Shown here in pieces: positions 3,316-63,548 of a DNA stretch of 64,000 nt (positions are counted from its first letter, which is position 1; each line of letters opens with the position of its first letter). This stretch comes from Candidatus Desantisbacteria bacterium CG1_02_49_89. Its GTDB lineage: Bacteria > Desantisbacteria > UBA1551. The DNA is taken from NCBI GenBank assembly GCA_001871075.1, contig MNUP01000033.1, forward strand, positions 437-64,436. Reading direction: 5' to 3'. The notes beneath the pieces were generated by a model. It was not told where the DNA came from, ran no database searches, and saw only the letters and a list, made by a program, of their open reading frames with translations. A program made the position numbers and the translations under genes.

Positions 3316-4235
3316 TGGGCTGTTTCGGATGCGGTTGCGCGCGTGAAGATCGTTTCCTTAAAAACCTCTTTTATTGGCTTGCCTGTCCAGGTATCAGGAA
3401 TAACCAGGCCAAGCGCGTAGATCGCTGCGCCTGAAACGTCGCAGATAGAGACCGGAGCCTGGATCTCGTAATCGGATTTTACGGATGCCCCTGAGCAGAT
3501 AAAGGGAACACACATATCGCGCGGGTCTGTTGTCCCGTGCCCTTTCCCGTGCCCTCCGTGGTCAGCGCTTATTATAATAAAAGCCTGGTCCAGGATGCCC
3601 GCGGAACGGAGCCCGTCTAATAAAACACCTATAGCTTTGTCGCAATCCTCTACAGATTTAACCTGGTTAGCTGAACCCCAGCCCCAGCTATGCCCTGCTG
3701 AATCAGGATCAGGCAGGTGCACAAAACATAAATTAGGTTTTTCCTCAATAATATACTCGGCAGCCGCCCTGGCTATTACCCCGGCATTGCTGTTTACCCA
3801 CCTGAACTTATCCACTGTTCCCGGCTTGGCTATATGCAGAAGTTTTTGTTTGCCGGTAAACATCGCGGTTTTCAGGCCGGCTGCTTTTGCCAGCTCGAAT
3901 ACCGTTGTCACCTGAACGTATCCTTTTTCCGGTTTGTAATCGTTCCATGTTATTTTATGCACGCTTGCCTTAACGCCTGTCAGCATTGAGGTATGGGCAG
4001 GCAGCGTCACGCTGGGCACGATACTTTGCGCCCAGAAGGTATAAGCGCCTCCGGAAGACAAAGCGCGGATATTCCTGGACTCCGCCCTGCAAAAAACTAT
4101 GTCAGAACGGGCGCCGTCAATGCTTATTATAAGCACGTAGTTGAACGGTGTTAACGCAACGGAAACCTGCGCTGCCGTGAAAACCAGCACAAAAACAAAT
4201 AATCCGGCTAAAACTCTTTTGATCCGTTGCTTCAT
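3312..4235 (-). CDS. Secreted alkaline-phosphatase-superfamily nucleotide pyrophosphatase/phosphodiesterase
   Basis: Signal peptide. ISIDGARSD metal-site motif. HLPDPDSAGHSWG. SADHGGHGKGHGTTD. Confidence 0.7.
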   Translation of the reverse strand: MKQRIKRVLAGLFVFVLVFTAAQVSVALTPFNYVLIISIDGARSDIVFCRAESRNIRALSSGGAYTFWAQSIVPSVTLPAHTSMLTGVKASVHKITWNDYKPEKGYVQVTTVFELAKAAGLKTAMFTGKQKLLHIAKPGTVDKFRWVNSNAGVIARAAAEYIIEEKPNLCFVHLPDPDSAGHSWGWGSANQVKSVEDCDKAIGVLLDGLRSAGILDQAFIIISADHGGHGKGHGTTDPRDMCVPFICSGASVKSDYEIQAPVSICDVSGAAIYALGLVIPDTWTGKPIKEVFKETIFTRATASETAQ

Positions 4236-7820: not shown

Positions 7821-8041
7821 ATGGCCTCTTTAATAAATAGATTAAATATATAATATAAAACCTGAAAATAGAGAATTGAAAATTGACCACAATCTCGCAA
7901 TCTCCTTTATCTATTGCTCTATTTTCTATTGCTCCAGTTTTCCGCAGTGCATATCAAAAAGACAGAAAATAGAAAATTGAGCAATAGACCGTCCGCCAAT
8001 CATGCTGGGCGGACTCTGATTTTTCGCAGAGCGAAAAATCT

Positions 8042-8115
8042 GGGCGGTACCCGGCTCGAACGGGTGACCTCCACGATGTCAACGTGGCACTCTAACCAAC
8101 TGAGCTAACCGCCCG
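8042..8115 (-). tRNA. tRNA-Val(GAC)
   Basis: Minus-strand sequence GGGCGGTTAGCTCAGTTGGTTAGAGTGCCACGTTGACATCGTGGAGGTCACCCGTTCGAGCCGGGTACCGCCCA folds as a cloverleaf with anticodon GAC. Confidence 0.85.
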
Positions 8116-8210
8116 CACATTCAAACACTCTTAGCGAAGTTGAAAACTGCGACCACAGGGAGTCCCGCATCTCCGATGGTACATCGGAGCATCGGGGAGC
8201 TAACCGCCCG

Positions 8211-8289
8211 TTTTAATACAGTTAAAAGTTGCCCGCCCCGACAACCATCGGGGCGAGGTCTCGCCCTGATTGAAATCAGGGCGGAAAAG
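8211..8289. repeat. Twin-hairpin element, copy A (CCCCGACAACCATCGGGG + CGCCCTGATTGAAATCAGGGCG)
   Basis: About 95% identical to 58728-58805. A diverged relative lies at 8623-8690. Confidence 0.5.
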
Positions 8290-8395
8290 CTGAAAGTTAA
8301 AAACTAAAATAGCCTGATAGAAAATAGAAAATTGAGAATAGACCGTCCCGATGTAACATCGGGACTCCACCACTTTTCCCTTGTTGGGAAAAGTG

Positions 8396-8470
8396 GTGCC
8401 AAGGGGCGGAATTGAACCGCCGACGCACGGATTTTCAGTCCGTCGCTCTACCAGACTGAGCTACCTTGGC
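8396..8470 (-). tRNA. tRNA-Phe(GAA), with CCA encoded
   Basis: GCCAAGGTAGCTCAGTCTGGTAGAGCGACGGACTGAAAATCCGTGCGTCGGCGGTTCAATTCCGCCCCTTGGCACCA. Confidence 0.85.
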
Positions 8471-8756
8471 ACATCCTGGTTAATGATAAAGAAAAGATTG
8501 ATGAACCTTTCAGTCCGTCGCTCTTCCTGGGTGATCTGCATAAAAGAATGCGCGTCGCTTTGCTCTTCCACCCGTCGAAGACATAAGTGATGTCTTCGAC
8601 CCAGACTGAGCTACCTTGGCACGTTAAATACAGTGATGAGTGAAAAGTGTCGCCCCTTCGGCGACCCGCCGTTGAGGCGGGAAAAGTCAAAAGATCATAC
8701 AACAGACTGCCTGTCCGTAATTACTGATATTCGCTTAATTGATTGACGCTTTTTAT

Positions 8757-9063: not shown

Positions 9064-10752
9064 CTACATCGCGGGAAGATAAACATGGAATGCCGCGCCG
9101 TCGCCAAGCGCAGATTCGGCTGAAATATGCCCGCCGTGCTTCTTGACTATGGCGAAAGCGACTGAAAGGCCCAGGCCGCTGCCTTTCGGCCTGGTAGTGA
9201 AAAACGGGTCAAATATCTTCGCGAGGTTCTCCTTCGGTATTCCTTCGCCCTGGTCTTTTACTGTTGTTTTCACGTATTTTCCGCTGCTTATTGGCAGCCC
9301 GTGCCCCTGGCCGAGTTCAACGTTCTCAGCGGTTATCCTGACTGTACCTCCTTCAGGCATTGCCTGTTCAGCGTTAATAACCAGGTTGTTTATGGCCTGG
9401 CTTATCTGTCCCTTGTCCGCGGATACGGAATACAGGTCATCCGGGATCGAGAAATCGCATTTGACGCCTGAACCGTTCAGCGCGGATACCGCTGAATCCC
9501 TTATCAGTACTGCTATGTCAATTGGTTCTGCAATCGTAGAGTCGCCTTTTGAGAAAGTAAGCAGCTGCTGGGTCAGGCCCCTTGCGCGCAGGCACGCCTT
9601 CTCAGCCGTCGATAGCGTCTCGTATGCCTCCTCCCCTGCCCGCATGTTCATTTTAGCAAGGCTGATATTCCCGACAACCACTGTCAGTATGTTGTTGAAA
9701 TTGTGCGCGATGCCGCCGGCAAGTATGCCCAGCGATTCCAGTTTCTGGGCCTTTTTAAGCTCTTCTTCCATCGTTTTCCTTTCCGTTATGTCCCTTATCA
9801 CGGCTAAGTGGCCTATGGGATTGCCGTTTTTATCCTTCAGCAGGGTAAATGACATAAGAGCGGTGAAGGTTGTCTTGTCTTTTCTGTAATGCGTTGTTTC
9901 CTCTCCCCAGCACCTTTGCAATTCATTGAAACCGCCCCTGCCTGCCGCGTTTTTTGTCTGTTCTTCTGAGTATATATCCGTGGCTTTCATCCCTATCATC
10001 TCATCAGGGGAATACCCGTGTATGCCCGCAAACGCGTTATTCACATAGGTCAGCGCGCATTCCATATCGCATATGGCTATACCGTCTATGGACTGTTCAA
10101 CCGCGGCGCTCAGCTTCCTTATTTCAGCGTCCGCTTTCTCCTGTTCGACCCGCTGAGAAGCGGATTCAAGCGCGAACGAGATATACGCGGCTAAGTTCTT
10201 TACTGACGGTACGGCCAGTTCTGCCAGGACCGGGGCAGTCATCGCGAATACGCCGCCAACACTCCCGCGGACCCAGATGGGCGTCAGGATCGTAACTTCT
10301 TTTTCGTAACCGAGTGTCACTGATATGAGCTTCGCTATCGGCCCGGGGTACAATTCATCGATTATATCGCTTACCTTTACGTGAAGCGTCTGCGCTTCCC
10401 TGACCACTTTGCCGTAGATCTTGGATTTATCCAGGGATATCTTGTATTTTGAAAGGCTATTCCCGGTCATTTTTTCAAGAAAACCCTTTTTGTCTGAGGA
10501 GCTTACCGAGGATACTGCAATTTCAAGATTGTCCCTGTCTTCAGCCAGGAGCAGAACCGAGCCTGTATATTTCCCTGACCCGGTAAACTCCTTTTCGACC
10601 GCGCCCAGCACTTCAGCCCTGTCCATTTTGCGGCACAAAGCTGTAGCCACTTTCTCAGAAAACTGTATTATGTTTATCAGCTCAGTATTCAGCTTGTCCT
10701 GATCCTGCCCCGGTCCTGCCGCCCCGCCCTTCCCTTTTTCATCGTAACTCAT
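9064..10752 (-). CDS. GAF-PAS sensor histidine kinase
   Basis: HisKA motif LESLGILAGGIAHNFNN. HATPase_c G-boxes (GEGIPKENL, GSGLGLS). PAS and GAF upstream. Confidence 0.8.
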   Translation of the reverse strand: MSYDEKGKGGAAGPGQDQDKLNTELINIIQFSEKVATALCRKMDRAEVLGAVEKEFTGSGKYTGSVLLLAEDRDNLEIAVSSVSSSDKKGFLEKMTGNSLSKYKISLDKSKIYGKVVREAQTLHVKVSDIIDELYPGPIAKLISVTLGYEKEVTILTPIWVRGSVGGVFAMTAPVLAELAVPSVKNLAAYISFALESASQRVEQEKADAEIRKLSAAVEQSIDGIAICDMECALTYVNNAFAGIHGYSPDEMIGMKATDIYSEEQTKNAAGRGGFNELQRCWGEETTHYRKDKTTFTALMSFTLLKDKNGNPIGHLAVIRDITERKTMEEELKKAQKLESLGILAGGIAHNFNNILTVVVGNISLAKMNMRAGEEAYETLSTAEKACLRARGLTQQLLTFSKGDSTIAEPIDIAVLIRDSAVSALNGSGVKCDFSIPDDLYSVSADKGQISQAINNLVINAEQAMPEGGTVRITAENVELGQGHGLPISSGKYVKTTVKDQGEGIPKENLAKIFDPFFTTRPKGSGLGLSVAFAIVKKHGGHISAESALGDGAAFHVYLPAM

Positions 10753-11914
10753 TTTTAGCCTCCTTTATCACGCTGTCCAGCACCCTGCTTAATTTCGTAA
10801 TAGTATAAGGTTTTGGGATCCCTCCGATGAAGCCGTATTCCCGGTAATGCACCATTACAGGATCGTTTGAGCCGCCGCTTGACACGATCGCCTTCGCGCC
10901 CGGGTCCGTCTTCAGGATCTCGCCGATCGCTTCTCTGCCGCCCATCCTGCCCGGCACTATAAGGTCCATTATAACAACGCCGAATTTACTGCCTGACTCC
11001 ATAGCCTGCCTGTATGTTTCCGCTGCTTCCTTCCCGTCCCTTGCGGATGTTACCTTATAGCCGATCCTTTCCAGCATCAAGGCCGCGGTATTTAATACTT
11101 CTTCCTCGTCATCCATCAGAAGGACCCTGCCCTTACCCTGCAGGATCGTTTTTTTCTGCGCGGCCGCGGTTTCCGGTTTCCCCTCTGACGCCGGAATATA
11201 TATATGGAAAGAAGCGCCCATGCCTGGCCCTGACTCAGCTGTTATGTGCCCGTTGTGCTCTTTGAAGATCTCAGACGCGATATTAAGGCCTATGCCGCTG
11301 CCTTCATGTTTGGTAGTAAAAAAAGGCTCAAAGATCCTGGACAGGTTCTCGCCGGGTATCCCTATACCGGTGTCTTTCACGGTTATTTTCACGTATTTGC
11401 CGTTTTTCAGGGGGAAAGGGTGGCCCTGCTCCAGCACCGCGTTCTCCGCGCTGACCTTTATCGTGCTCCCTTTTGTTACTGACTGCTCGGCGTTTATCAC
11501 AACGTTGTTTATGGCAAGCGTGATGCGGCCGGGATCTATTTCAGCGTCCCACAGATCTTTTGGTATTGAGAACCTGCAGCCAACGCCTGAACCGTGAAGC
11601 GCCAGCATCGCTGAGCTTTTTATCAGGCCTTCCATGGATATCGTTTCATTAACAGGAGCTCCGCGGCTTGAGAAGGCAAAAAGCCGCCTGACCAGGTCTC
11701 TTGCGCGCAGGCATGCTTTCTCCGCTCCGCCTAATACCCTGTAAGCCGCGCCTGACGCGCCAGAATCCATTTTCGCGAGTTCTATATTACCCAGTATTAT
11801 TGTCAGCGCGTTATTCAGGTCATGGGCCGTGCCCGCGGTAAATTTAATGAAGGAAACCGATTCATCCAGTTTCTCCCGCAAGCCCCGCGAATGCATTCCT
11901 TGTTTAAGTTTCAT
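10739..11914 (-). CDS. Hybrid histidine kinase (HisKA-HATPase-REC)
   Basis: AHDLNNALTII H-box. GIGIPGENL / GSGIGLN. C-terminal receiver (VLLMDDEEEV...D). It overlaps the downstream kinase by 14 nt. Confidence 0.8.
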   Translation of the reverse strand: MKLKQGMHSRGLREKLDESVSFIKFTAGTAHDLNNALTIILGNIELAKMDSGASGAAYRVLGGAEKACLRARDLVRRLFAFSSRGAPVNETISMEGLIKSSAMLALHGSGVGCRFSIPKDLWDAEIDPGRITLAINNVVINAEQSVTKGSTIKVSAENAVLEQGHPFPLKNGKYVKITVKDTGIGIPGENLSRIFEPFFTTKHEGSGIGLNIASEIFKEHNGHITAESGPGMGASFHIYIPASEGKPETAAAQKKTILQGKGRVLLMDDEEEVLNTAALMLERIGYKVTSARDGKEAAETYRQAMESGSKFGVVIMDLIVPGRMGGREAIGEILKTDPGAKAIVSSGGSNDPVMVHYREYGFIGGIPKPYTITKLSRVLDSVIKEAKNELR

Positions 11915-19249: not shown

Positions 19250-21133
19250 TTATTTCATTACCTTAAGGATCGCGTTGCTCAGTTCTTCCCCTGTGTATGG
19301 CTTTGCTACCACTCCCTTAAAACCGTATTTCCCGTATTCTGACATTATCGGGTCATTGGAATACCCGCTGGATGCTATTGCCCTGACTTCCGCTTCGATC
19401 TTGATCAATTCCTTGATCGCGTCCCTGCCTCCCATGCCTCCGGGTATTGTCAGGTCCATAATGACCGCGTCAAAAGGATTGCCTGATCTTTTCGCCCGGC
19501 TGTATAATTCAACGGCTTCCAGGCCGTCAGCCGCAAGTTCCGCCTCATATCCCAGACTCCTCAGGATGCAGCCGGTAGCTTGCCTGATCTGCTCTTCGTC
19601 ATCCATCAGCAGGATCCTGATCTTCCCGGCGCTATTCTTCTTAGGCGCGTAACTGCCCGGATCAACCGGCCTGTTTTCCATCGCCGGAATGTATATATAA
19701 AAAGTTGTCCCTGTCCCTTCCTTAGACTCAACCCTGATATACCCGTTGTGCTTCTTTATGATCGAATAGGCGGCGGACAGCCCCATTCCGCTTCCCTTTT
19801 CTTTTGTCGTGAAAAAAGGATCAAATATCCTGGACAGGTTTTCTTCGGGTATTCCCTTTCCGTTGTCATTCACGGATAATTTCACGTATTTTCCTTCCTT
19901 CAGCGCGATCTCCCGGCAGGTACCTGCATCCACGTTCTCCGCACTCAGGTTTATTACACCCCCTTTCGGCATTGACTGCTCAGCGTTGATAATAAGGTTG
20001 TTCATCACCTGCTGCATCTGTCCCTTATCCACCTCCGCATCCCACAGGTTGCCGGGAATGCGGAATTTGCATTTGACATTTGAACCGCTCAACGCGAAAT
20101 CCGCTGACTCTTTAATCAGCGCGGCTATTGATGCCGATTCCTTGATGGGCACGCCTGCCTTAGAAAAAGTAAGCAGCTGCTGGGTCAGGCCCTTAGCGCG
20201 CAGAGCTGCTTTCTCGATCCTGCCCAGCGCTTCAAAAGCATCTCCTTCGGGTTTGATCTCCGTTTTCATTGAAAAAACGCTGGTAATGATGACTGTCAGC
20301 ATATTGTTAAAATCGTGTGCAATGCCCCCGGTGAGTATGCCCAGTGATTCAAGTTTCTGGGCCTTCAAAATTTCCTCATTCATTTTTTTACGGTCTGTAA
20401 CATCCCGGAAAAATCCTACGTTCAGCAGCCTTCCTCCCATCCTTATGGGCCTTGACCCTATATCGGCAAAAATAACTTTCCCGTTTTTCCTTAAACAGGG
20501 CATGTCCTCGGCGATCGCGATCTCGCCTTTAACCTGTTTTTTGAACGCTTCCGTCACATGTTTCAAGCTGCCTTTGGGATGTATGTCGTTCACTCCCATA
20601 TTCACCAGTTCTTTTTCTTCATAACCCAGGAAACGGCATATTGCGGGATTGGCGAATTTTATCTTCATTGTCTCCGCGTCTGCCGCGAGTATCCCGTCCA
20701 CAGCCCCTTCAAATACCGATCTGAACTTTCCCTCGGATTCCCTGAGCTGTTCTTCCACGGCTCTGCGCTCCATAACCTGTCTTATCAGGGACAGGATCGA
20801 GTTCATGTCAACCGGCTTGGTTTCGTAACTTACTATATCCTTTTTTCTTACAGCCTCAACCGCGCTTTCTATTGAGGCATAACCCGTAATAACTATATAT
20901 TCCGTTCCCTGAGCTTGCAGGGAAAGCCTTTCGATCAGCTCAAGCCCTGTCATGTCAGGCAGTTTTATATCGACAAGAATAAGGTCAAACAATTTTTCGC
21001 CGCAAAGTTTAACCGCGGCCTGCCCGTTATCCGCGGTATCCGCCGTATAACCCTCTTCCTGCAGGATATCCCTCATATTATAAACGAAATCTTTATCGTC
21101 ATCTATGATCAGTATATTGGGCTTTTTCCTCAT
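19250..21133 (-). CDS. Hybrid sensor kinase (REC-PAS-HisKA-HATPase-REC)
   Basis: N-terminal REC. PAS. LESLGILTGGIAHDFNN. GKGIPEENL / GSGMGLS. C-terminal REC. Confidence 0.8.
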   Translation of the reverse strand: MRKKPNILIIDDDKDFVYNMRDILQEEGYTADTADNGQAAVKLCGEKLFDLILVDIKLPDMTGLELIERLSLQAQGTEYIVITGYASIESAVEAVRKKDIVSYETKPVDMNSILSLIRQVMERRAVEEQLRESEGKFRSVFEGAVDGILAADAETMKIKFANPAICRFLGYEEKELVNMGVNDIHPKGSLKHVTEAFKKQVKGEIAIAEDMPCLRKNGKVIFADIGSRPIRMGGRLLNVGFFRDVTDRKKMNEEILKAQKLESLGILTGGIAHDFNNMLTVIITSVFSMKTEIKPEGDAFEALGRIEKAALRAKGLTQQLLTFSKAGVPIKESASIAALIKESADFALSGSNVKCKFRIPGNLWDAEVDKGQMQQVMNNLIINAEQSMPKGGVINLSAENVDAGTCREIALKEGKYVKLSVNDNGKGIPEENLSRIFDPFFTTKEKGSGMGLSAAYSIIKKHNGYIRVESKEGTGTTFYIYIPAMENRPVDPGSYAPKKNSAGKIRILLMDDEEQIRQATGCILRSLGYEAELAADGLEAVELYSRAKRSGNPFDAVIMDLTIPGGMGGRDAIKELIKIEAEVRAIASSGYSNDPIMSEYGKYGFKGVVAKPYTGEELSNAILKVMK

Positions 21134-28160: not shown

Positions 28161-29000
28161 TTAGTCTTCTAGTATTGCGACCGGCCTGACCCAGCCGGCG
28201 CTTGCCCCCTTGATTTTTACCGGAAAACACATTACACTGAAACCGTGAGATTTCGGTATCCTGTCAAGGTTCGCCATTTTCTCGATGTGGCAGTATTCCT
28301 TCTTTCTCCCGGCGAAATGCGCGGGCCAGAGGAAACTTTTGTCCTTTGTGCGGGTATAGTCATCCATCATGTTCCTGAAAGGCCGGTCAAGCCCGTACCC
28401 GTCAGTGCCGATTATTTTAACTCCCCGGTCTAACAGCCACAGGACCGCGTCCCCGCTTAATCCGGGGTGGGAAAAAAAATAATCTTTCCTGCCCCAGTGC
28501 TTGTCAGCGCCGGTCATTATAAGGACGATATCGCCTGCGCTTATTTTATAATCTATTTTATCCAGCGCGGACCGAAGGTCGTCCGCGGTAATAAAATCCC
28601 CCTGCTTTTTTGCCCTGAAATCAAGCACGACGCCGTTTCCCGAGCACCATTCAAGCGGGACCTCATCTATAGTTTTGGATGGCCTGCCTTCCGATAACGG
28701 CCCGAAATGATAAGGAGCGTCTAAGTGGGTTCCCGTATGGGTATCCCCGTTTATGGTTTCCCAGGCAAGGCCCATTCCGTCAGGAAAGTCCCTGTGTGTC
28801 ACCTTCTTTATCCCGGTTAAATGCAATAAAAGGTTCTTAAGGGTGATAAATACCGAATGCCCGGAAATAAGAGCGGCAAGCCCAAGCAGGTCCGCTCCCT
28901 GTTTATGGTTAAGGTATTTTATCCTGGCAGGTTCCGGCTCAACCGGGGAATCATCAAGCGCAACGCTCAGATCAATGAATTTCAAGCAAATCCTCCCCAT
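28161..29000 (-). CDS. Cyclase-family protein (kynurenine formamidase-like metal hydrolase)
   Basis: HxGTHxDAPxH motif (GDTHTGTHLDAPYHFG). Confidence 0.7.
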   Translation of the reverse strand: MGRICLKFIDLSVALDDSPVEPEPARIKYLNHKQGADLLGLAALISGHSVFITLKNLLLHLTGIKKVTHRDFPDGMGLAWETINGDTHTGTHLDAPYHFGPLSEGRPSKTIDEVPLEWCSGNGVVLDFRAKKQGDFITADDLRSALDKIDYKISAGDIVLIMTGADKHWGRKDYFFSHPGLSGDAVLWLLDRGVKIIGTDGYGLDRPFRNMMDDYTRTKDKSFLWPAHFAGRKKEYCHIEKMANLDRIPKSHGFSVMCFPVKIKGASAGWVRPVAILED

Positions 29001-29048: not shown

Positions 29049-29118
29049 AGCCCCGCCAGCTCCTAAGGAGCTTAACGGCGGGACCTGCGCCCGCCAATAA
29101 TCGTGGCGGGCTACGGAC
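29049..29118. repeat. Structured ~70-90-nt element, copy 3 (opposite orientation, compensatory variant)
   Basis: It shares CGGGACCTGCGCCCGCCAATAAYCGTGGCGGGCTACGG with 38353-38439 and 54175-54260. The second stem-loop differs in sequence but keeps the same stem/bulge(TAAC)/stem geometry. Confidence 0.45.
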
Positions 29119-29455
29119 GAAAACACTAAAGAAATTATTTACAGGGAACTTAAGAGAACTTAAAAGGCTATAAGATATTTTTCACAGGGATTTAAAGAGA
29201 TTTAAAAAAATCAGCCACGGATGTCCACGTATAATACTCACTTGTCAACTATATAAACTGCATTTGCAACCACGGATTCCCACGGATTTTCACAGATTAC
29301 AACTTTGCAAACTCTGTAAACCATGTAAACTGTATTTGCAACTACGCGATTTCACTCGATTTTCACAAGATTAGTCTTTCACTGGACACTGGCCACTTAA
29401 AGTGAGTCCCCCTTCTTGCTTTTCTGAGAAAGCAGGGGGGCAACTGGACACTGAA

Positions 29456-31597
29456 TTAATCACGTCTGCCTTTAACTACCCCGTGCATTACACTGCTGAT
29501 CACATCCACAGAACAGGGTTTTGGTATGGCGGCCGCGAAACCGTATTTTTTATAATCGGAAATAACCGGGTCATCGGAATAACCGGTGGTCACCACTATC
29601 CTCGCGCCCGGGCTGATCTTGAGCAGTTCCACGGCAGTTTCTTTGCCGCCAAGCCCTCCTGGGATGATCATATCAACGATAACCGCGTCAAACGGATCTT
29701 TTGAATTCAGGGCTTTACTGTACAGATCGATCGCTTCTCTTCCTTCCCGCGCAAAGCTGACGCTGTATCCGAAATGCATAAGCACGCGCCCCATCGTATT
29801 CCTTACCTGCTCCTCATCGTCCATCAGCAGTATATTCCCTTTCCCTTCATAGAAAGCCTTCGCGGTTTCTTCTGTTTTAGTTCCGTTACTCGACGCGGGT
29901 ATGTATATATTAAAAGTTGTGCCCCTGCCTGTTTCTGATTCAACAGTGACGGCGCCGTCATGCCTTTTTATTATTGAATACGCGATCGAAAGGCCCAGCC
30001 CGATCCCGCCTTTTTTGGTCGTGAAAAACGGGTTAAAGATCTTCCCGATATGCTCTTCGGATATTCCGGGGCCTTTGTCCTGGATCCCTATTTTTACGTA
30101 CCTGCCTTCCTTCAGCCCGTTCTCTCCCTGTCTGACAACCGCATTATCGGCTCTTATTGTTATGAGCCCTCCCCCTTTCACTGCCTGCCTTGCGTTGAGT
30201 ATAATATTGCTTATTGCCTGGTTTATCTGCCCGGAGTCTACTTCTGTCTGCCAGAGGTCTTTCTGTATTAAAAATTCGGGTTTCAGGTCTGAGCCGTGAA
30301 GGGCAAAATTCACAGAGTCTTTTATCAGTTTTACTGTCTTGGCCGGTTTCTTTACCGGCTCCCCTCCTCTCGCAAAAGTAAGAAGATGATGCGTAAGTTC
30401 TTTCGCGCGCCTGCCCGCGTTTTCGGCTTCTTCCAGCAGCTCTTTTTCCTCTTTTCTGCTGGAATGCCTGATCTTAAGAAGCCCGATGTTCCCGAGTATC
30501 GGTGTGAGCATATTGTTGAAATCGTGCGCTATCCCCCCGGCGAAAATCCCCAGCATTTCAAGCCTTTCTGTTTTTTCGAGTTCCGCTTCGATCCTCCTGC
30601 GCTCCGTGATGTCGCGTATGACCCCTACCATATACGCGGTTTTTCCCTCGCTGCCCGCAATAAACCTGCTTATTGCCTCCATAAACGCGATATTCCCGTC
30701 TTTTTTTAGAACACGGAAAATATACCTGGGTCTGAGCTCGTTCTCCGCCACATTACTTAAATTATTTCTTATTGACTCCCTTTCGTCCGGATGGATGAGC
30801 TGCAGCCAGTCCCCTCCCGTAACATCTTCCTGTTTATACCCGAGCAGCTGATAAATGTTGGGGCTTATAAAATCCACCTTGCCGCTTGTGTCGAAAGAGA
30901 AAATAATGTCGCTGCTGTTGTCAACGACCATCCTGTATTTTTTCTCGGCTTCATCAAGCTTTCTTTCTTCTTTCTTAAATAAGCGGCTTCCCAGAACTTT
31001 CCACTCATTATCCTGCCTGATAACGGTAAACTCGTGGTTTTGAATAACGTCCAGCACTTCAGATGCTTCGCATTTTTTAAAAGGATACGCGCAGAAAGCT
31101 ATCATCCTGTATTTTTCGATAACGCCGTTGATCGCTTCCTCGTATTTCCTGAAGCTTTCCCAGTGCTTTTTTTGAAGCCATGCCGTATCCCCCGCAGCCC
31201 TTATTCCTTCATAGCCGTCTGCAAGCGCCTGGCCCAGCACCTTATCCCATAACGCCATAACTCTTTCGGCATCAAACTCATTGTTTATCAGATACCATTC
31301 ATCATAGGGAATTATCTTGAACCGGCCCTTTTTTATATACTCATCAAGATCAGGCATAACCTTTTGCATTGCCCCGCTGATCTCGTTCTCTTCCGGTGTT
31401 CCGGAAGCGATCCACATGCAGAGCTCATTATTCTCAAGCCCTGCCCTGAAATAGGGGGCGAGTATCTCAAGAAGGTCATCTTTGCCTGAATAAAGCTGGC
31501 AGATATGGGTCCCCCACGGTATATCACCCAGGAAAACAATGCCTGATCTCCTATTATTACCTTTCATACCTGTCCTTTCCTTTAATATATAAACCAC
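29456..31597 (-). CDS. MEDS-domain hybrid sensor kinase (MEDS-PAS-HisKA-HATPase-REC)
   Basis: N-terminal GDIPWGTHICQLYSGKDDLLEILAPYF (MEDS). GIAHDFNNMLTPI. GPGISEEHI / GIGLGLS. C-terminal REC. Confidence 0.75.
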   Translation of the reverse strand: MVYILKERTGMKGNNRRSGIVFLGDIPWGTHICQLYSGKDDLLEILAPYFRAGLENNELCMWIASGTPEENEISGAMQKVMPDLDEYIKKGRFKIIPYDEWYLINNEFDAERVMALWDKVLGQALADGYEGIRAAGDTAWLQKKHWESFRKYEEAINGVIEKYRMIAFCAYPFKKCEASEVLDVIQNHEFTVIRQDNEWKVLGSRLFKKEERKLDEAEKKYRMVVDNSSDIIFSFDTSGKVDFISPNIYQLLGYKQEDVTGGDWLQLIHPDERESIRNNLSNVAENELRPRYIFRVLKKDGNIAFMEAISRFIAGSEGKTAYMVGVIRDITERRRIEAELEKTERLEMLGIFAGGIAHDFNNMLTPILGNIGLLKIRHSSRKEEKELLEEAENAGRRAKELTHHLLTFARGGEPVKKPAKTVKLIKDSVNFALHGSDLKPEFLIQKDLWQTEVDSGQINQAISNIILNARQAVKGGGLITIRADNAVVRQGENGLKEGRYVKIGIQDKGPGISEEHIGKIFNPFFTTKKGGIGLGLSIAYSIIKRHDGAVTVESETGRGTTFNIYIPASSNGTKTEETAKAFYEGKGNILLMDDEEQVRNTMGRVLMHFGYSVSFAREGREAIDLYSKALNSKDPFDAVIVDMIIPGGLGGKETAVELLKISPGARIVVTTGYSDDPVISDYKKYGFAAAIPKPCSVDVISSVMHGVVKGRRD

Positions 31598-37302: not shown

Positions 37303-38253
37303 CTATAAACTATGTAAACTTGTTATCGTGGTTTTCCGTGCGAGCCTGCTTACGTCGGCAGGGCGGCAAAGCGCTGTTCCCTTGCGGATCGACGAAGCTG
37401 TCCCGCAGGCAATGCCCTGCCGCAGGCTTTCCTCGATCCCCTTATTATTCATATATGCGTGCGTGAAACCCGCTACAACCGCATCACCGGACCCCACTCC
37501 GCTTCTTTTCAGCCTTACGGGCGGCCGAAGGCGCCACAACCTGCCTTTTGACGCTGCCATTATGCCCCTTGCTCCCCAGGAAATTATCGCTATTTCGCTG
37601 TGGCATGCAAGAATGCATGCGGCTTCCGCAAGTTCTTCTTCAGAACATATCCTGAAAACTCTGCCTGTGATCCTTTTAAGGAGCCTTTCGGCTTCGAATA
37701 TGTTCGGTTTGATCAAAAAGGGTTTTTCTTTTACCCCTCTGAAAAATGGCTCACCGTCGCTGTCAAGGACCGTTTTTGTACCCGTCCGGCGCATCAGCCT
37801 GATGATGCGGGCGTAAATATCTTCGTCTGTCCCCGCGGGTATGCTGCCTGATATTATAAGGCAGTCCCTTCGGGTAAGCGCTGATAGTTTTGAAAACAGC
37901 TTCCTGAAATCGCCTGCCTTGACAGAAGGCCCGTCTTCGTTTATTTTTATCTGCCCGCGTTTCCCGGTTATTTCTATGCTGATGTTGGAGCGGTTATCGC
38001 CTGCTATCCTGACAAAATCAGTCCGGACGCCTTCTTTTTTCAACAGTTCGCAGATCTTGGTTCCCGTGTACCCGCCTATAAATCCGTATGCAACCGTGCT
38101 TCCTTTAAGCCTGCGGATAATGCGGGAAATATTAATTCCCTTTCCTCCGGGATCCCTCTGTATCTCAGGTACCCTGTTTATATCCCTGAGATCGACTTTT
38201 TTCAAAGAAGCTGTCAGGTCCAAAGATGGGTTGAGCGTTAAGGTCGCTATCAT
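37303..38253 (-). CDS. PfkB-family sugar kinase (1-phosphofructokinase/tagatose-6-P kinase-like)
   Basis: MIATLTLNPSLDL...DPGGKGINISR N-terminus. C-terminal DTVGAGD-like GVGSGDAVVAGF. Confidence 0.75.
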   Translation of the reverse strand: MIATLTLNPSLDLTASLKKVDLRDINRVPEIQRDPGGKGINISRIIRRLKGSTVAYGFIGGYTGTKICELLKKEGVRTDFVRIAGDNRSNISIEITGKRGQIKINEDGPSVKAGDFRKLFSKLSALTRRDCLIISGSIPAGTDEDIYARIIRLMRRTGTKTVLDSDGEPFFRGVKEKPFLIKPNIFEAERLLKRITGRVFRICSEEELAEAACILACHSEIAIISWGARGIMAASKGRLWRLRPPVRLKRSGVGSGDAVVAGFTHAYMNNKGIEESLRQGIACGTASSIRKGTALCRPADVSRLARKTTITSLHSL

Positions 38254-38352
38254 AACTTCAGATCCTGGATACTGGATGCAAGATGCTGGATAAAATCAAT
38301 TTGAAGGTTGTGTGGGAATAAAAACCGAAAATAGAACAATGGAAAATAGACC

Positions 38353-38439
38353 GTCCCGACCGTAGCCCGCCACGGTTATTGGCGGGCGCAGGTCCCTGTG
38401 TTAAGTTCCGGATTTATAGGAACTACAGGGATCGGGACT
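38353..38439. repeat. Structured element, copy 1
   Basis: GTCCCGACCGTAGCCCGCCACGGTTATTGGCGGGCGCAGGTCCCTGTGTTAAGTTCCGGATTTATAGGAACTACAGGGATCGGGAC. It is 95% identical to 54175-54260. Confidence 0.45.
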
Positions 38440-38568
38440 CCAGATTCTTCGCGGAGCGAATGCAAGTAAGCAAACACTGAGAATAGAGAATTGAAAATAG
38501 ACCGCAATGTCGCTTTGTCTTTTCTATTCTCGATTTTCTATTGCTCCATTGCTCTAGTCCCGATCTTA

Positions 38569-38650
38569 TATCGGGACTGCCGAGGGCGGGATTTGAACCC
38601 GCAAGGGTTACCCCATACGCCCCTTAAACGTACGTGTCTGCCAGTTCCAC
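38569..38650 (-). tRNA. tRNA-Leu (type II, long variable arm). The anticodon loop is unusual; best parses are AAG or TAA.
   Basis: GCCGAGGTGGTGGAACTGGCAGACACGTACGTTTAAGGGGCGTATGGGGTAACCCTTGCGGGTTCAAATCCCGCCCTCGGCA. D-arm, T-arm and acceptor are canonical Leu-like. The anticodon stem-loop folds as either a 7-nt loop TTAAGGG or a 9-nt loop. Confidence 0.7.
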
Positions 38651-38707
38651 CACCTCGGCTAATAATCTATTGCTCTATTTTCTATTGCTCTGCTTGAAGG
38701 GGTTTAT

Positions 38708-53332: not shown

Positions 53333-53587
53333 TTAATATAGTCAGATATATAAATAGAATTGAGAATTTAAAAACGGGTCGGCTTCGAACCATATTTAAA
53401 AGCTGAAAATGGATAATAGAGCAATAGACCATCCCGATGTAACATCGGGACTCTATTTTTTCGCTCTGCGAATGCTCAATACTGAGAATGGAAAATAGAG
53501 CAATAGACCGCAATTTCGCAATTCCTTTCTCTATTTTCTATTGTTCTATTGCTCCATTGCTCTATTTTTTCGCTCTGCGAAAAAATG

Positions 53588-53659
53588 AGCGGGAGACGGG
53601 ATTCGAACCCGCGACATCTACCTTGGCAAGGTAGCACTCTACCACTGAGCTACTCCCGC
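53588..53659 (-). tRNA. tRNA-Gly(GCC)
   Basis: GCGGGAGTAGCTCAGTGGTAGAGTGCTACCTTGCCAAGGTAGATGTCGCGGGTTCGAATCCCGTCTCCCGCT. Confidence 0.85.
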
Positions 53660-53770
53660 TTAAAATACAGTTGTCAGTTGTCGGTTCTCAGTTGTCAACT
53701 AAAAATCAAACTCTTTGATCTATTTTCAATTTTCCTTTGCTCGATTGCTCTGATCCCGATTTTATCGGGA

Positions 53771-53800
53771 TTTGCGAGGGAGAGGACTTGGTCCTTTGTG
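53771..53800 (-). pseudogene. tRNA-Leu 3'-end remnant followed by the family post-tRNA hairpin
   Basis: TTTGCGAGGGAGAGGACTTGGTCC mimics the tRNA-Leu(TAG) 3' end TCTGCGAGGGAAGGGACTTGAACCC. No complete cloverleaf. Confidence 0.3.
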
Positions 53801-54029
53801 AATCTTCGCCAGAACCGGGTGAAGTCTCAGATTCACCCGGAGCCGGGGAATTTTGCTGACGCCCCGATGGTAGTCATCGGGGCTTTACCAGTGGCGCAAA
53901 ATTCCTTTCAAGTCTTTGTCAAAACTTGAAAATGGAAAATTGAACAATAGACCGCAATCTCCTTAAGTATTTATCTATTGCTCTATTCTCTATTTTCGAT
54001 TGCTCCGATTTTTCGCCTCGCGAAAAATC

Positions 54030-54111
54030 TGCGAGGGAAGGGACTTGAACCCCTAAGCCTTTCGGCATACGGTCCTAAGCCGTACGCGTATACCAGTTCC
54101 GCCACCCTCGC
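54030..54111 (-). tRNA. tRNA-Leu(TAG)
   Basis: GCGAGGGTGGCGGAACTGGTATACGCGTACGGCTTAGGACCGTATGCCGAAAGGCTTAGGGGTTCAAGTCCCTTCCCTCGCA. Confidence 0.85.
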
Positions 54112-54174
54112 TTACAATCTATTCTCCATTTTCTATTTTCGGACTCTGAAAATAGAACAATAGAGCAATTGACC

Positions 54175-54260
54175 GTCCCGACCGTAGCCCGCCACGGTTA
54201 TTGGCGGGCGCAGGTCCCTGTGTTAAGTTCCGGTTTTATCGGAACTACAGGGATCGGGAC
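54175..54260. repeat. Structured element, copy 2 (spacer between tRNA-Lys and tRNA-Leu)
   Basis: Near-identical to 38353-38439. Confidence 0.45.
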
Positions 54261-54286
54261 TCTGATCTTTCACCTCGTGAAAGATC

Positions 54287-54358
54287 TGCGCTGCGCCGGA
54301 TTTGAACCAGCAACCTTGTCCTTAAGAGGGACCTGCTCAACCGTTGAGCTAGCAGCGC
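54287..54358 (-). tRNA. tRNA-Lys(CTT)
   Basis: GCGCTGCTAGCTCAACGGTTGAGCAGGTCCCTCTTAAGGACAAGGTTGCTGGTTCAAATCCGGCGCAGCGCA. Anticodon loop CTCTTAA. Confidence 0.75.
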
Positions 54359-54475
54359 ATATTACTACGATGAAAGAAAATAGAAAATGGAAAATAGACC
54401 ACAATCTCGCTATTCCTTAATCCATTGCTCTATTCTCTATTGCTCGATTGTTCTGTTTTTCCCGAAGGGAAAAAC

Positions 54476-54549
54476 AGCGCCCGGGGCGGCTCGAACGCCC
54501 GACCTGCTGCTTCGAAGGCAGCCGCTCTATCCATCTGAGCTACGGGCGC
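54476..54549 (-). tRNA. tRNA-Arg(TCG)
   Basis: GCGCCCGTAGCTCAGATGGATAGAGCGGCTGCCTTCGAAGCAGCAGGTCGGGCGTTCGAGCCGCCCCGGGCGCT. Confidence 0.8.
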
Positions 54550-54664
54550 ACGCATTCGTCTACACCCAACGCCCGGAGCGAACTTCCATTAATACCCTCA
54601 GGGTCCATTAATAAATATATTAGTATATCATAAATAATAAAAAATGTCAAATAAAACCAGGAAG

Positions 54665-57596: not shown

Positions 57597-57820
57597 GTGT
57601 CAGAATGTCAGAGCAGAATTATGGCTCTTTGACTTATATCTTCAATACTTTTTAATCAAGCCGCGTTTTCCTTTCTATATTTTCAATTGCTCTGTTTTCA
57701 GCTCTGCGAAATAAAATCTGAAAATGGAAAATAGAGCAATAGACCGAAATGTCGCTTCTTTTTTCTCTATTTTCTATTGTTCTATTGCTCCATTGCTCTG
57801 ATTTTCCCTGCGGGAAAATC

Positions 57821-57899
57821 TGGGGTGAGCGAGGGGATTTGAACCCCCGGCCACTTGGGCCACAGCCAAGTGCTCTAACCGGACTGAGCTACGCCCACC
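57821..57899 (-). tRNA. tRNA-His(GTG), with G-1 and 3' CCA encoded
   Basis: G-GTGGGCGTAGCTCAGTCCGGTTAGAGCACTTGGCTGTGGCCCAAGTGGCCGGGGGTTCAAATCCCCTCGCTCACCCCA. Confidence 0.85.
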
Positions 57900-58042
57900 A
57901 CCTAATAATCCATTTTCTATTTTCTATTATCGATTACTCGATTGCTCTGTTTTTCCCGCTGGTACTGCCTGAGAATAGAGAATGGAACATAAACCGTCCC
58001 GATGTTACATCGGGACTCTGATTTTTCGCTTCGCGAAAAATC

Positions 58043-58116
58043 TGCGCCTGGCCCGATTCGAACGGGCGGCCACCTACTTAGAAGGCAGGTGCTCTATCCA
58101 ACTGAGCTACAGGCGC
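58043..58116 (-). tRNA. tRNA-Arg(TCT)
   Basis: GCGCCTGTAGCTCAGTTGGATAGAGCACCTGCCTTCTAAGTAGGTGGCCGCCCGTTCGAATCGGGCCAGGCGCA. Confidence 0.85.
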
Positions 58117-58223
58117 ACACCCATAAAAACAGTGTCAAAGAGTCAGAGTGTCAGAGTGTCAAAGTAAAAGATAAGAATCCTTAGATATTTGGAGCGAAGG
58201 GAAACTGCCTGTCCGCCGACTTG

Positions 58224-58293
58224 CCCGCCGTAGCACCAACAAACCTTTTTCGAATAGAAAAATATTAGGTTTGTTGGGTATCTGCGCAGGCGG
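58224..58293. repeat. GAATA-loop covarying hairpin element, copy 2
   Basis: CCCGCCGTAG + CCAACAAACC / GGTTTGTTGG + TTTTTC-GAATA-GAAAAA + GCAGGCGG. Confidence 0.4.
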
Positions 58294-58432
58294 AAGCATA
58301 TTGCGGCAAACCCACGACGTTTAGTTAATACACAAATACCCTTAAACAAAAAGAACTAGAGAATAGAAAATTGAGCAATAGACCGTCCCGATGTCACATC
58401 GGGGCTCCAAATTTTCGCGTTGCGAAATTTTA

Positions 58433-58507
58433 TCGGGAAGGTGGGATTTGAACCCACGGCCTCCTGCTCCCAAAGCAGGCGCGCTAGCCAGGCTGCGCTA
58501 CTCCCCG
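58433..58507 (-). tRNA. tRNA-Pro(TGG)
   Basis: CGGGGAGTAGCGCAGCCTGGCTAGCGCGCCTGCTTTGGGAGCAGGAGGCCGTGGGTTCAAATCCCACCTTCCCGA. Confidence 0.85.
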
Positions 58508-58727
58508 TCGCCTGCTTTGCTCGCCCAGGGCATTCTGCAGGCGAACAAAGCGTTTGTTCGTTCCACTCACTCCATGCCCGTGAACGACATAAGTGATGTC
58601 GTTCACCCCAAAGCAGGCGCGCTAATCCTGTGTGCTATGCAATAACGGAAGTGTGGCTCGTTCCACTCGCATCGCACCCGTAAACGACATAAGTGATGTC
58701 GTTTACCCAGGCTGCGCTACTCCCCGC

Positions 58728-58805
58728 GTCTAAACAGTTAAAAGTTGCCCGCCCCGATAGCCATCGGGGCGAGGTCTCGCCCTGATTGAAATCAGGGCGG
58801 AAAAG
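58728..58805. repeat. Twin-hairpin element, copy B
   Basis: CGTCTAAACAGTTAAAAGTTGCCCGCCCCGATAGCCATCGGGGCGAGGTCTCGCCCTGATTGAAATCAGGGCGGAAAAG, as at 8211-8289. Confidence 0.5.
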
Positions 58806-58817
58806 ATAAAAATTAAA

Positions 58818-62660: not shown

Positions 62661-63548
62661 CTACAACGTAGTTGTAGCCTTACGCAGAGCCCAGCAGGAT
62701 ATATTGATCGCTACAGGCAGTCCTGCTATATGGGTCGGAAAGGTTTCTATATTTACTCCGAGGGCAGTTGTCTTACCCCCGAATCCTCCCGGCCCTATCC
62801 CCAGCGCATTTATTTTTCTTAATAGTCTATTTGCTAATTCTGACACTTGACATCCGCCCCGATCAATGTCGGGGCGAGACCTCGCCCTGCCTTTGCGCAG
62901 GGCGGGCTGGACTCTTGACACTGGTTTAAGGAGTGCTTCCTTCGCAATCACCATCGCTTTCTCGGAAGTTCCGCCTATTCCCACTCCAACGATCAGAGGC
63001 GGACAGGCATTCGGACCGAATTTCTTAACCGTTTCGACTATAAAATCTTCTATTGCGCCGGATTTTTCACCGGGCAGGAACATTCTGATCGTACTTGTAT
63101 TTTCGCTTCCGAAACCCTTGGGCAGTACCGTAATTTTTATCCTGCTGCCCGGAACGACTTTTGTGTGGATCACGGCTGGAGTGTTGTCGCCTGTATTTAC
63201 GCGTTTCCCGAAAGGATCTTCCACAACCGAAGCACGCAGGCAGCCTTTTCTATACCCGGAACGCACGCCTTCCTGTATTGCTTTTTCAAGATTTCCCTTG
63301 ATATGAAGATCCTGCCCTATTTCCAAAAACACCACAGCCATCCCGGTATCCTGGCACATCGCGATGGATCCTTTTTCCGCTATCTCAATATTTTTGAGGA
63401 TTGAATCCATAGCGTATCCGGCAAGACCTTTTTCTCTTTTTGCCGCTTTCTGTATGGCTTTTTTTACATCAGGCCGTAATGTATAATTCGCCCTCATGCA
63501 CAGTTCCGCTACGGTATCGGTTATTTTAGAAGCATTTATGATTTTCAT
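62661..63548 (-). CDS. Class I fumarate hydratase alpha-type subunit (Fe-S hydro-lyase N-terminal domain)
   Basis: MKIINASKITDTVAELCMRANYTLRPDV...CQDTGMAV. The Cys ligands typical of the tartrate/fumarate hydro-lyase alpha region. Confidence 0.8.
   Translation of the reverse strand: MKIINASKITDTVAELCMRANYTLRPDVKKAIQKAAKREKGLAGYAMDSILKNIEIAEKGSIAMCQDTGMAVVFLEIGQDLHIKGNLEKAIQEGVRSGYRKGCLRASVVEDPFGKRVNTGDNTPAVIHTKVVPGSRIKITVLPKGFGSENTSTIRMFLPGEKSGAIEDFIVETVKKFGPNACPPLIVGVGIGGTSEKAMVIAKEALLKPVSRVQPALRKGRARSRPDIDRGGCQVSELANRLLRKINALGIGPGGFGGKTTALGVNIETFPTHIAGLPVAINISCWALRKATTTL

Follow-up and report, generated by a model that had tools for sequence, protein, structure and literature searches.

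A hairpin module in a Candidatus Desantisbacteria species that may be a low-copy mosaic palindromic DNA element

The described systems closest to the element reported here are the repetitive extragenic palindromic (REP) sequences of the GTAG type. These are units of 20-40 bp with stems of 6-13 bp and a conserved GTAG end; they form subfamilies with alternative complementary stem residues and occasional G-T pairs and occur as inverted dimers, often heterodimers, the head-to-head type tending toward conserved spacers (PMC3733652). REPs usually exceed 100 copies per genome and bind integration host factor (IHF) and other proteins (PMC3733652; PMC2817692), and the genome holds a gene for a REP-associated tyrosine transposase (RAYT, a Y1 transposase), typically flanked by its own REPs (PMC2817692). 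Here we describe a two-hairpin module found in three full copies in a 64,000-nucleotide stretch (the window) of Candidatus Desantisbacteria bacterium CG1_02_49_89 (contig MNUP01000033.1, positions 437 to 64,436) and at other loci outside it. On balance, we lean toward a palindromic DNA element, mosaic and low in copy number, that has not been described before and belongs to one Candidatus Desantisbacteria species, a groundwater bacterium; it would resemble REPs and bacterial interspersed mosaic elements (BIMEs) or miniature inverted-repeat transposable elements (MITEs). A DNA-level element is favoured because hairpin cassettes are exchanged between copies, either orientation relative to predicted transcription occurs, all members fall in one population, the orthologous spacer of relatives lacks the module, and a sibling family is inserted in open reading frames (ORFs).

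Other small structured non-coding repeats include MITEs, the Rickettsia palindromic elements, which are inserted in frame, and the modular BOX elements of pneumococci. The single-strand DNA ends of insertion sequences of the IS200/IS605 type are recognised as folded hairpins, with no target duplication, and IS1397 targets the loops of REP hairpins. Titles and abstracts of papers that mention Desantisbacteria, as far as inspected, gave no hint of such repeats.

An earlier note on the window, made from its sequence alone, had pointed to three copies that share an 8-bp stem with an ATAAYCG loop. We confirmed this, since a 33-nt core, CCTGCGCCCGCCAATAAYCGTGGCGGGCTACGG, occurs exactly at three sites in the window, 29084-29116 (+), 38360-38392 (-) and 54182-54214 (-), and none of 100 shuffles gave any match. 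Copies 2 (38353-38438, -) and 3 (54175-54260, -) fold into a perfect three-way junction of the helices P1, P2 and P3 with zero unpaired nucleotides at the junction, the module itself occupying 38360-38431 and 54182-54253, respectively. Copy 1 (29051-29116, +) is a P2 and P3 module without the outer stem P1. In copies 2 and 3, P1 is a 7-bp stem, GUCCCGA/UCGGGAC (GTCCCGA/TCGGGAC in the DNA), which closes the junction; P2 has an outer and an inner helix with a one-sided UAAC bulge, the inner AG...CT hairpin being followed 3' by TAAC and enclosed by the outer stem; P3 consists of a 2-bp helix, a 3x3 internal loop (UGC/UAC) and an 8-bp helix. Compared with shuffled sequences, the stability of the folds corresponds to z = -5.2, -6.6 and -3.3 for the three copies, the values -5.2 and -6.6 being given with copies 2 and 3. 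Both hairpins of the two-domain structure proposed in the earlier note were thus recovered, and the outer stem of copies 2 and 3 had been overlooked there.

In outline, the module consists of a pair of hairpin cassettes connected through a linker that does not vary, CTTAAC-NNN-GGGACCTGCG ... CTACGG. The inner hairpin of P2 has a stem of 6-8 bp; P3, 23-24 nt long and also with a stem of 6-8 bp, exists in two discrete types, I and II. The P3 of copy 1 is of type I (GCCCGCCA-ATAATCG-TGGCGGGC), and the outer P2 stem of this copy, CCCGCC/GGCGGG, has the sequence of the type I P3 stem. Reading and folding both agree with the earlier observation that the TAAC bulge is kept with compensatory changes in the outer and inner stems of P2, which read CCCGCC-AGCTCC...GGAGCT-TAAC-GGCGGG in copy 1 (outer stem CCCGCC/GGCGGG, inner stem AGCTCC/GGAGCT) and TCCCTGT-AGTTCC...GGAACT-TAAC-ACAGGGA in copies 2 and 3. 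The second domain had also been given as the same in copies 2 and 3, which is incorrect, since their P2 loops differ (TATAAATCC versus GATAAAACC).

We collected members of the family on contigs outside the window, designated by L-numbers, among which L009 and L024-29 are strains sharing one secA/marR-like intergenic locus. A metagenome scan with the pattern TTAAC N4 GGACCTGC N23 CTACGG, which fits only members with a 24-nt P3 and not the window copies, gave four loci; looking up contigs that carry a gene next to the module added further members. In total five loci are known: the tRNA trailers that carry copies 2 and 3, copy 1, L007, L010 and the secA/marR-like intergenic region. A covariance model, R1, was built on an alignment (A3) that has one extra A in the P3 loop of the window copies, which affects only loops; it scored the nine sequences at 66-106 bits (copy 1, 66 bits, E 3.5e-14; copy 2, 102 bits; copy 3, 103 bits). 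Pair counts were taken from alignment A5, which is model-based and holds the real sequences.

In A5 (nine sequences from five loci) 95.2% of the cells pair, against 27-49% in slid controls, and both sides are changed in 16 of 28 pairs; RNAalifold independently recovers the same three-way junction. The UAAC bulge, the linker GGGACCUGCG, the internal loop and CUACGG are invariant in all nine sequences. P1 was observed in three unrelated sequences, GUCCCGA, GCUCCGA and GUGUUUU, the third of which contains a terminator U tract and may be fortuitous, and it is absent in copy 1 and L009. The view of the earlier note that we are not dealing with a passive duplication holds, and with the additional copies, too, the stems change in a compensatory way around an invariant bulge, linker and internal loop.

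The same note had gone further and taken the covariation as a sign of selection on a folded RNA or a cruciform. This step is not supported as it stands, as the secA/marR-like locus shows. Over 130 nt downstream of the module, L009 and L024-29 are ~97-99% identical, and their P3 is completely different: type II, GAGCCAGAGCTTGGCCGATGGCTC (GAGCCA..TGGCTC, 24 nt), versus type I, GCCCGCCAATATTCGTGGCGGGC (GCCCGCCA-ATATTCG-TGGCGGGC, 23 nt), with the type I stem as in the window. Their P2 loops differ as well, their upstream flanks are unrelated to each other, and downstream there is an indel of 59 nt with a hairpin in it. Near-identical flanks with unlike P3 indicate that whole palindromic cassettes are exchanged between invariant linkers. 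Other comparisons show the same mosaic: copy 2 and L007 have an identical P2 and linker with different P3 and P1, and copies 1 and 2 have P3 and the linker in common with a different P2. The covariation is mostly cassette-wise and not gradual; because complementarity travels with the cassette, pair statistics alone do not demonstrate selection for structure. The 59-nt indel, which separates L024 from L009, has itself the form hairpin-AGGTCT-hairpin, is bounded by a 10-nt direct repeat, AAAACTTGAC, and lies upstream of the marR-like gene.

The strand opposite to the module offers a further view of its construction. Read on that strand, P3 has the form CC-GTAG-hairpin-GCAGG in all nine sequences (CTACGG after P3), and on the sense strand the inner hairpin of P2 is preceded by TGTAG in eight of them, copy 1 having CCAG. 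The two GTAG heads face outward, and the spacer, CTTAACNNNGGGACCTGC, is invariant except for NNN. These heads, the stem sizes and the inverted dimer with its spacer agree with GTAG REPs; the flanking duplication of MITEs was not found, and the copy number looks low so far.

Copies 2 and 3 are themselves placed within other palindromes. Every tRNA gene in the window (regions 7850-8480, 38440-38700, 53390-54560 and 57690-58520) has a 3' trailer of three parts in a fixed order, namely hairpin A, hairpin B and a long AT-rich hairpin. Hairpin A is GATTTTTCGC-NNN-GCGAAAAATC (for example at 8018-8040, 54007-54029, 54264-54286 and 58020-58042), and the AT-rich hairpin is made of 8-nt periodic units, GAAAATAGA / TCTATTTTC (for example at 53484-53554 and 57720-57790). 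Hairpin B, GTCCCGATG-TAA-CATCGGGAC, is seen with a plain apical loop at 8345-8365, and its stem is P1 of copies 2 and 3; together with close variants, the plain-loop form occurs at eight or more sites besides copies 2 and 3, all of them tRNA 3' trailers (other members are at 57996-58016, 53432-53450, 58387-58403, 38556-38578, 53753-53771, 53861-53883 and 8171-8189). At 7991-8014 the hairpin-B position is occupied by another stem, GTCCGCC/GGCGGAC. The tRNA-Leu(aag) gene has no encoded CCA, and hairpin B begins directly after its discriminator base.

Since the P1 stem is the hairpin-B stem, the 72-nt module of copies 2 and 3 fills the apical loop of a resident trailer hairpin. These two copies are 97% identical across 96 nt, flanks included, which indicates one duplicated tRNA-trailer segment, and the host segment of copy 2 is a degenerate tRNA trailer. 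We also observed a partial relative at 665-753 (-; R1 22 bits, E 0.002), in which an outer stem of the P2 type, ATCCCTG/CAGGGAT, with an AAAC bulge surrounds a palindrome of the hairpin-B type, AGTCCCGA...TCGGGACT. Here inner and outer parts have changed places relative to copies 2 and 3, and nesting therefore takes place in both directions.

A sibling family, made up of two hairpins, has sequence related to the portion of the module formed by P3 and the linker. It has the form GTTG-CC-CGCCCCGA..TCGGGGCG-AGGTCT-CGCCCTG..CAGGGCG and is found near tRNAs at 8225-8290 (+), with a GTTG head, the CGCCCCGA hairpin, the AGGTCT linker and the CGCCCTG hairpin, and at 58741-58806 (+), as well as inside the fumarase gene at 62853-62907. 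When aligned with the antisense strand of copy 1, the sibling scores 31-35, against 16 +/- 3 (maximum 28) for shuffles, the aligned lines being GTAGCCCGCCACGATTA--TTGGCGGGCGCAGGTCCCGCC and GTTGCCCGCCCCGACAACCATCG-GGGCG-AGGTCTCGCC. The copy at 62853-62907 is in frame in fumA, the gene of the fumarate hydratase alpha subunit (62661-63548, -), where it adds ~16 residues (PALRKGRARSRPDIDRGG) in comparison with PDB 7xky_A; an imperfect direct repeat of 11 nt, GACaCTTGACA / GACtCTTGACA, borders it on both sides. Similarly, uvrC of L024 (2492-4159) contains the sibling in frame at 3565-3618, with the exact 13-nt direct repeat AGTCCACAGTCCA on its flanks. The sibling family is clearly inserted DNA, and because the module resembles it, the same nature is likely for the module.

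We then consider how widely the module is distributed. A filter-free R1 search of the window gave no further full copy, and none was found in the 9.5 kb past its right end or the 8.1 kb past its left end, so that the contiguous 81.7 kb hold three full copies. A pattern with N22, which specifies 21 bases and matches all three window copies, had no match in IMG/VR or in the representative genomes of GTDB (one per species, a set evidently without the window's own sequence); for the GTDB set, zero means only that the exact 21 bases are in no other representative genome. Neither did blastn detect anything similar in plasmid and phage collections, nor R1 in ~48 kb of other Desantisbacteria and related contigs. 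By exact protein look-ups, the genes adjoining the L007 copy encode the same NCBI proteins as window genes (Ca. Desantisbacteria bacterium CG1_02_49_89 / CG_4_10_14_0_8_um_filter_48_22), and the gene adjoining the module in L024 has a member of at least 90% identity in the metagenome-assembled genome (MAG) of Ca. Desantisbacteria bacterium CG1_02_49_89 / CG_4_10_14_0_8_um_filter_48_22. These identities place all known members in one species-level population. We consequently dropped the idea that L007, L009 and L010 come from other organisms and give cross-species covariation, L007 belonging to the same MAG and L024 and L009 to the same species-level population.

The spacer between tRNA-Leu(aag) and the PfkB gene, which carries copy 2, is syntenic in relatives, and the element is absent from it at 51% PfkB identity (a Desantisbacteria relative) and at 57%; these element-free relatives (L012-15 and L016) are too distant for an empty-site comparison. 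In L011, at 88% PfkB identity, the spacer apparently lacks the element, the contig starting at the critical point. Relatives reached through the cyclase gene beside copy 1 have a different upstream gene and hence no comparable intergenic region. 

If the module is a DNA element, copies would spread or be reshuffled at the DNA level, by recombination or gene conversion between copies, or through a hairpin-recognising single-strand DNA transposase of the RAYT or IS200 kind. They would persist where a stable hairpin is tolerated, that is, in apical loops and intergenic gaps. Where the module sits in the loop of hairpin B, this palindrome supplies P1, and the three-way junction would be a by-product of nesting. 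A transcribed module, as in the tRNA operon, would simply fold into a stable three-way junction, from which an incidental effect on RNA processing or stability may follow.

Several observations weigh against this proposal. No transposase or RAYT gene was found for the element by the motif scan of the window; when the loci collected at that time were added, the Y1 motif scan gave only a degraded Y1-like ORF in L012, a different species. For the module itself, neither an empty site nor a target-site duplication was found at the loci compared: inspection of the flanks at all five loci gave no direct repeats, and the 7-bp P1 is present only in copies 2 and 3 and in L007 and L010. The copy number looks low, with three full copies in 81.7 kb and five loci, unlike the more than 100 per genome of REPs. 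Copy 3 is very probably transcribed within a tRNA operon. At least two independent single substitutions in stems, one in P1 of L010 and one in the outer P2 helix common to L024, L025 and L029, gave a G-U pair on the sense strand, and a C-A mismatch on this strand arose once; this hints weakly at folding of one particular strand. Finally, L007 and L010 share a ~565-nt block that includes the module and has different flanking genes; it is 85% identical overall and shows no change in P2 and the linker. Along with the invariance of the bulge, the linker and the internal loop, this points to constraint or to homogenisation.

The degraded Y1-like gene deserves a separate description. It lies at 9470-10000 of L012 (also in L013-L015; Desantisbacteria MAG GCA_002779445.1), in the tRNA-Leu(aag)/PfkB spacer, and shows a Y1-transposase-like N-terminus, MSRPLRIEYPGALY, followed by a stop and an ORF with a Bac_DnaA_C domain; 24-nt inverted repeats, GGTGTCAGGTCTTGACAAATGACA, flank it. 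A homology search from this Y1-like/DnaA_C ORF returned only itself.

A less probable alternative is a small structured RNA with a function, which we keep in mind in view of the position of copy 3 within a tRNA operon. It could be a small RNA with a three-way junction, an element acting in processing or stability, or a self-cleaving ribozyme of a new kind. The functional core would then consist of the UAAC bulge, the linker GGGACCUGCG and the internal loop (UGC/UAC), with P1-P3 as scaffolds, and the family would be expressed in multiple copies from tRNA operons and other loci. The junction obtained both from RNAalifold and from single-sequence folding (z down to -6.6), the high proportion of paired cells (95%) with double changes in 16 of 28 pairs, the invariance of all unpaired junction-proximal nucleotides and the three unrelated sequences of P1 agree with such an RNA. 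So do the G-U wobbles, mostly on the sense strand, and the unchanged P2 and linker in the 85%-identical block; likewise, a low copy number with conserved loops suits an RNA family better than a high-copy REP. As the earlier note had suggested, we compared the sequence with Rfam: at the gathering threshold Rfam 15 gave tRNAs alone in the window, and at E up to 10 the slice 38300-38500 gave chance matches only, so that such an RNA would be new. In contrast, P3 is present as two discrete cassettes swapped between near-identical strains, with no continuum of compensatory substitutions, P1 is missing in copy 1 and L009 and possibly fortuitous in its third version, the family is confined to one species population, and a relative of it is found in frame inside protein genes.

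Transcription bears on this RNA alternative. The minus strand carries all ten tRNAs and most genes of the window. The neighbours of copy 3 are tRNA-Lys (54286-54359, -) on one side and tRNA-Leu(tag) (54030-54111, -) on the other, and a promoter-like site at 54650-54622 (-), an 11/12 sigma-70-like match, is upstream of this tRNA cluster; because it is downstream of this site, copy 3 is very probably co-transcribed in the sense orientation within the tRNA operon. Copy 2 is on the same strand as both of its neighbours, tRNA-Leu(aag) (38578-38659, -) and the PfkB gene (37303-38253, -). The placement beside tRNA genes, which the earlier note had given for the copies, is valid for copies 2 and 3 only; copy 1 is ~9 kb away from the nearest tRNA and is indeed upstream of the cyclase gene, but carried by the other strand. 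It lies between this gene (28161-29000, -) and the gene of a MEDS-PAS histidine kinase (29456-31597, -), in antisense orientation to both.

The module is thus in the sense of likely transcription at two loci, the tRNA trailers and the secA/marR locus, and antisense at two, copy 1 and L007. At L007 a 12/12 match to the sigma-70 consensus, TTGACA-16-TATAAT, conserved in L010, would transcribe the strand opposite to the module. At the secA/marR locus the module comes after two U-tract hairpins, which we read by eye as terminators and which the terminator scan did not report, and before a scan-predicted promoter-like site, TTGACT-16-TATAAT. Antisense placement relative to a predicted transcription unit at two of five loci, and a position between terminator-like hairpins and the next predicted promoter at another, argue against a functional RNA, as does the lack of any promoter-like site at a fixed upstream distance in promoter scans around the module loci. 

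Some observations were made beside these loci. In L007 (2452-1890, minus strand) and L010 (2022-2608) the perfect TTGACA-16-TATAAT promoter is followed by a ~520-nt non-coding unit with a CU-rich 5' part, several small palindromes and a terminator-like hairpin end, within which the module lies antisense; the region 1800-2550 of L007 had no match in Rfam at E up to 1. Directly downstream of copy 1, at 29140-29205, ACAGGGAACTTAAGAGAACTTAAAAGG and ACAGGGATTTAAAGAGATTTAAAAAAATC form two direct repeats in which pieces resembling the module (ACAGGGA, CTTAA) recur in another order; they may be relics or chance. The MEDS-PAS histidine kinase gene adjoining copy 1 is one of the minus-strand genes that contain blocks of 60-70% identity (9070-9296, 11189-11415, 19682-19908 and 29894-30120); to judge from the sequence, this suggests a paralogous sensor-kinase family in the region. 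At the left of the window, 521-598 and 1773-1850 form a 78-nt inverted repeat, 100% complementary, that brackets the gene of a zinc-dependent alcohol dehydrogenase (747-1718, -); short motifs, GTCATTGCGA / TCGCAATGAC, recur near it, and no transposase was found between its arms.

It is unlikely that the module is instead a conserved, non-mobile DNA site recognised by a host protein or recombinase, of the nucleoid or gyrase type, for recombination or insulation, or for a bidirectional pause of transcription or replication. Its orientation independence and intergenic placement agree with such a site, the invariant 17-20-nt linker could be a binding site, and REPs are bound by IHF and other proteins (PMC3733652; PMC2817692). 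However, the module does not keep a constant place with respect to promoters or gene ends, and in L024 the 59-nt insertion lies between the module and the promoter; G-T wobbles and one C-A mismatch are tolerated, which argues against the need for a symmetrical duplex cruciform, and the element is absent from relatives. Chance similarity or plain segmental duplication of a tRNA spacer, which the 97% identity of copies 2 and 3 with their flanks (one duplicated trailer segment) might recall, is very improbable and already refuted by independent loci, since copy 1, L007 and L009/L024 keep the module boundaries in unrelated contexts, no match to the pattern was found in 100 shuffles and the covariance model scores reach 66-106 bits.

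We also examined and rejected some known elements as candidates. In an integron attC site, ACTTAAC would fit RYYYAAC, yet the bulge is one-sided and the element has no GTTRRRY partner. An intrinsic terminator (a GC-rich hairpin followed by a U run) was discarded as the terminator scan was negative at the module copies, with nothing at copy 1, copy 3, the L007 copy and the L024 copy. The twister, hammerhead, hairpin and hatchet ribozymes, a tRNA-like structure and group II intron domains were rejected on sequence grounds and for want of an Rfam match.

The finding has a practical consequence. Covariation that looks like a textbook case, with invariant loops, compensatory stems and a clean three-way junction, can arise from the swapping of palindromic cassettes in mosaic repeats, which calls for caution in RNA-motif discovery in MAGs. 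In addition, the tRNA-trailer palindromes, the three-way-junction module and the sibling family inserting in fumA and uvrC together form, in a candidate phylum, a set of small hairpin modules not described before. More speculatively, and we consider this doubtful, the module could be a new class of small three-way-junction RNA, released from tRNA operons as a self-cleaving element or one that directs processing, or, as a folded single strand, the substrate of an HUH-type enzyme not recognised so far, with the bulge and internal loop as core and the cassettes as exchangeable scaffolds. If it were the substrate of a hairpin-recognising enzyme, or such an RNA itself, it would offer a compact, well-defined system for hairpin-loop targeting.

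Compared with known systems, the module shares with three-way-junction RNAs and self-cleaving ribozymes (hammerhead, twister-sister, hatchet) a small size, variable distal stems, invariant junction-proximal nucleotides and several copies per genome in varied contexts, but it has no Rfam match, unpaired junction nucleotides or known catalytic core, and its orientation is inconsistent. As with IS200/IS605 and IS1397, its recognition would depend on folded hairpins with conserved unpaired bases and variable stems, and it has in common with them the absence of target duplication and a placement in the apical loops of palindromes; it differs in that no Y1 transposase is linked to it, the host loop TGTAACA is replaced and not split, and its length is only ~66-72 nt. 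Like MITEs, Rickettsia palindromic elements and BOX elements, it is modular and patchy between strains, and its sibling is in frame in fumA and uvrC with direct repeats; unlike MITEs, it has neither a target-site duplication nor a parent insertion sequence, and its terminal inverted repeats (P1), limited to two loci, belong to another palindrome family. The closest likeness is with GTAG REPs, BIMEs and REPINs (paired REP units), which are likewise short GC-rich palindromic units with a GTAG head and, here, stems of 6-8 bp, complementary-stem subfamilies, and inverted unlike units with a conserved spacer, in either orientation and intergenic (PMC3733652; PMC2817692). The module is distinguished from them by its apparently low copy number with no RAYT gene seen, and by its host, a candidate phylum outside the REP surveys consulted (PMC3733652; PMC2817692). 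In its architecture, the tag ends in a G that is base-paired, with a 2-bp helix beyond the tag; another stem, with a one-sided TAAC bulge, encloses the first unit, and the loop of a third palindrome often holds the composite, which then forms a perfect three-way junction with it.

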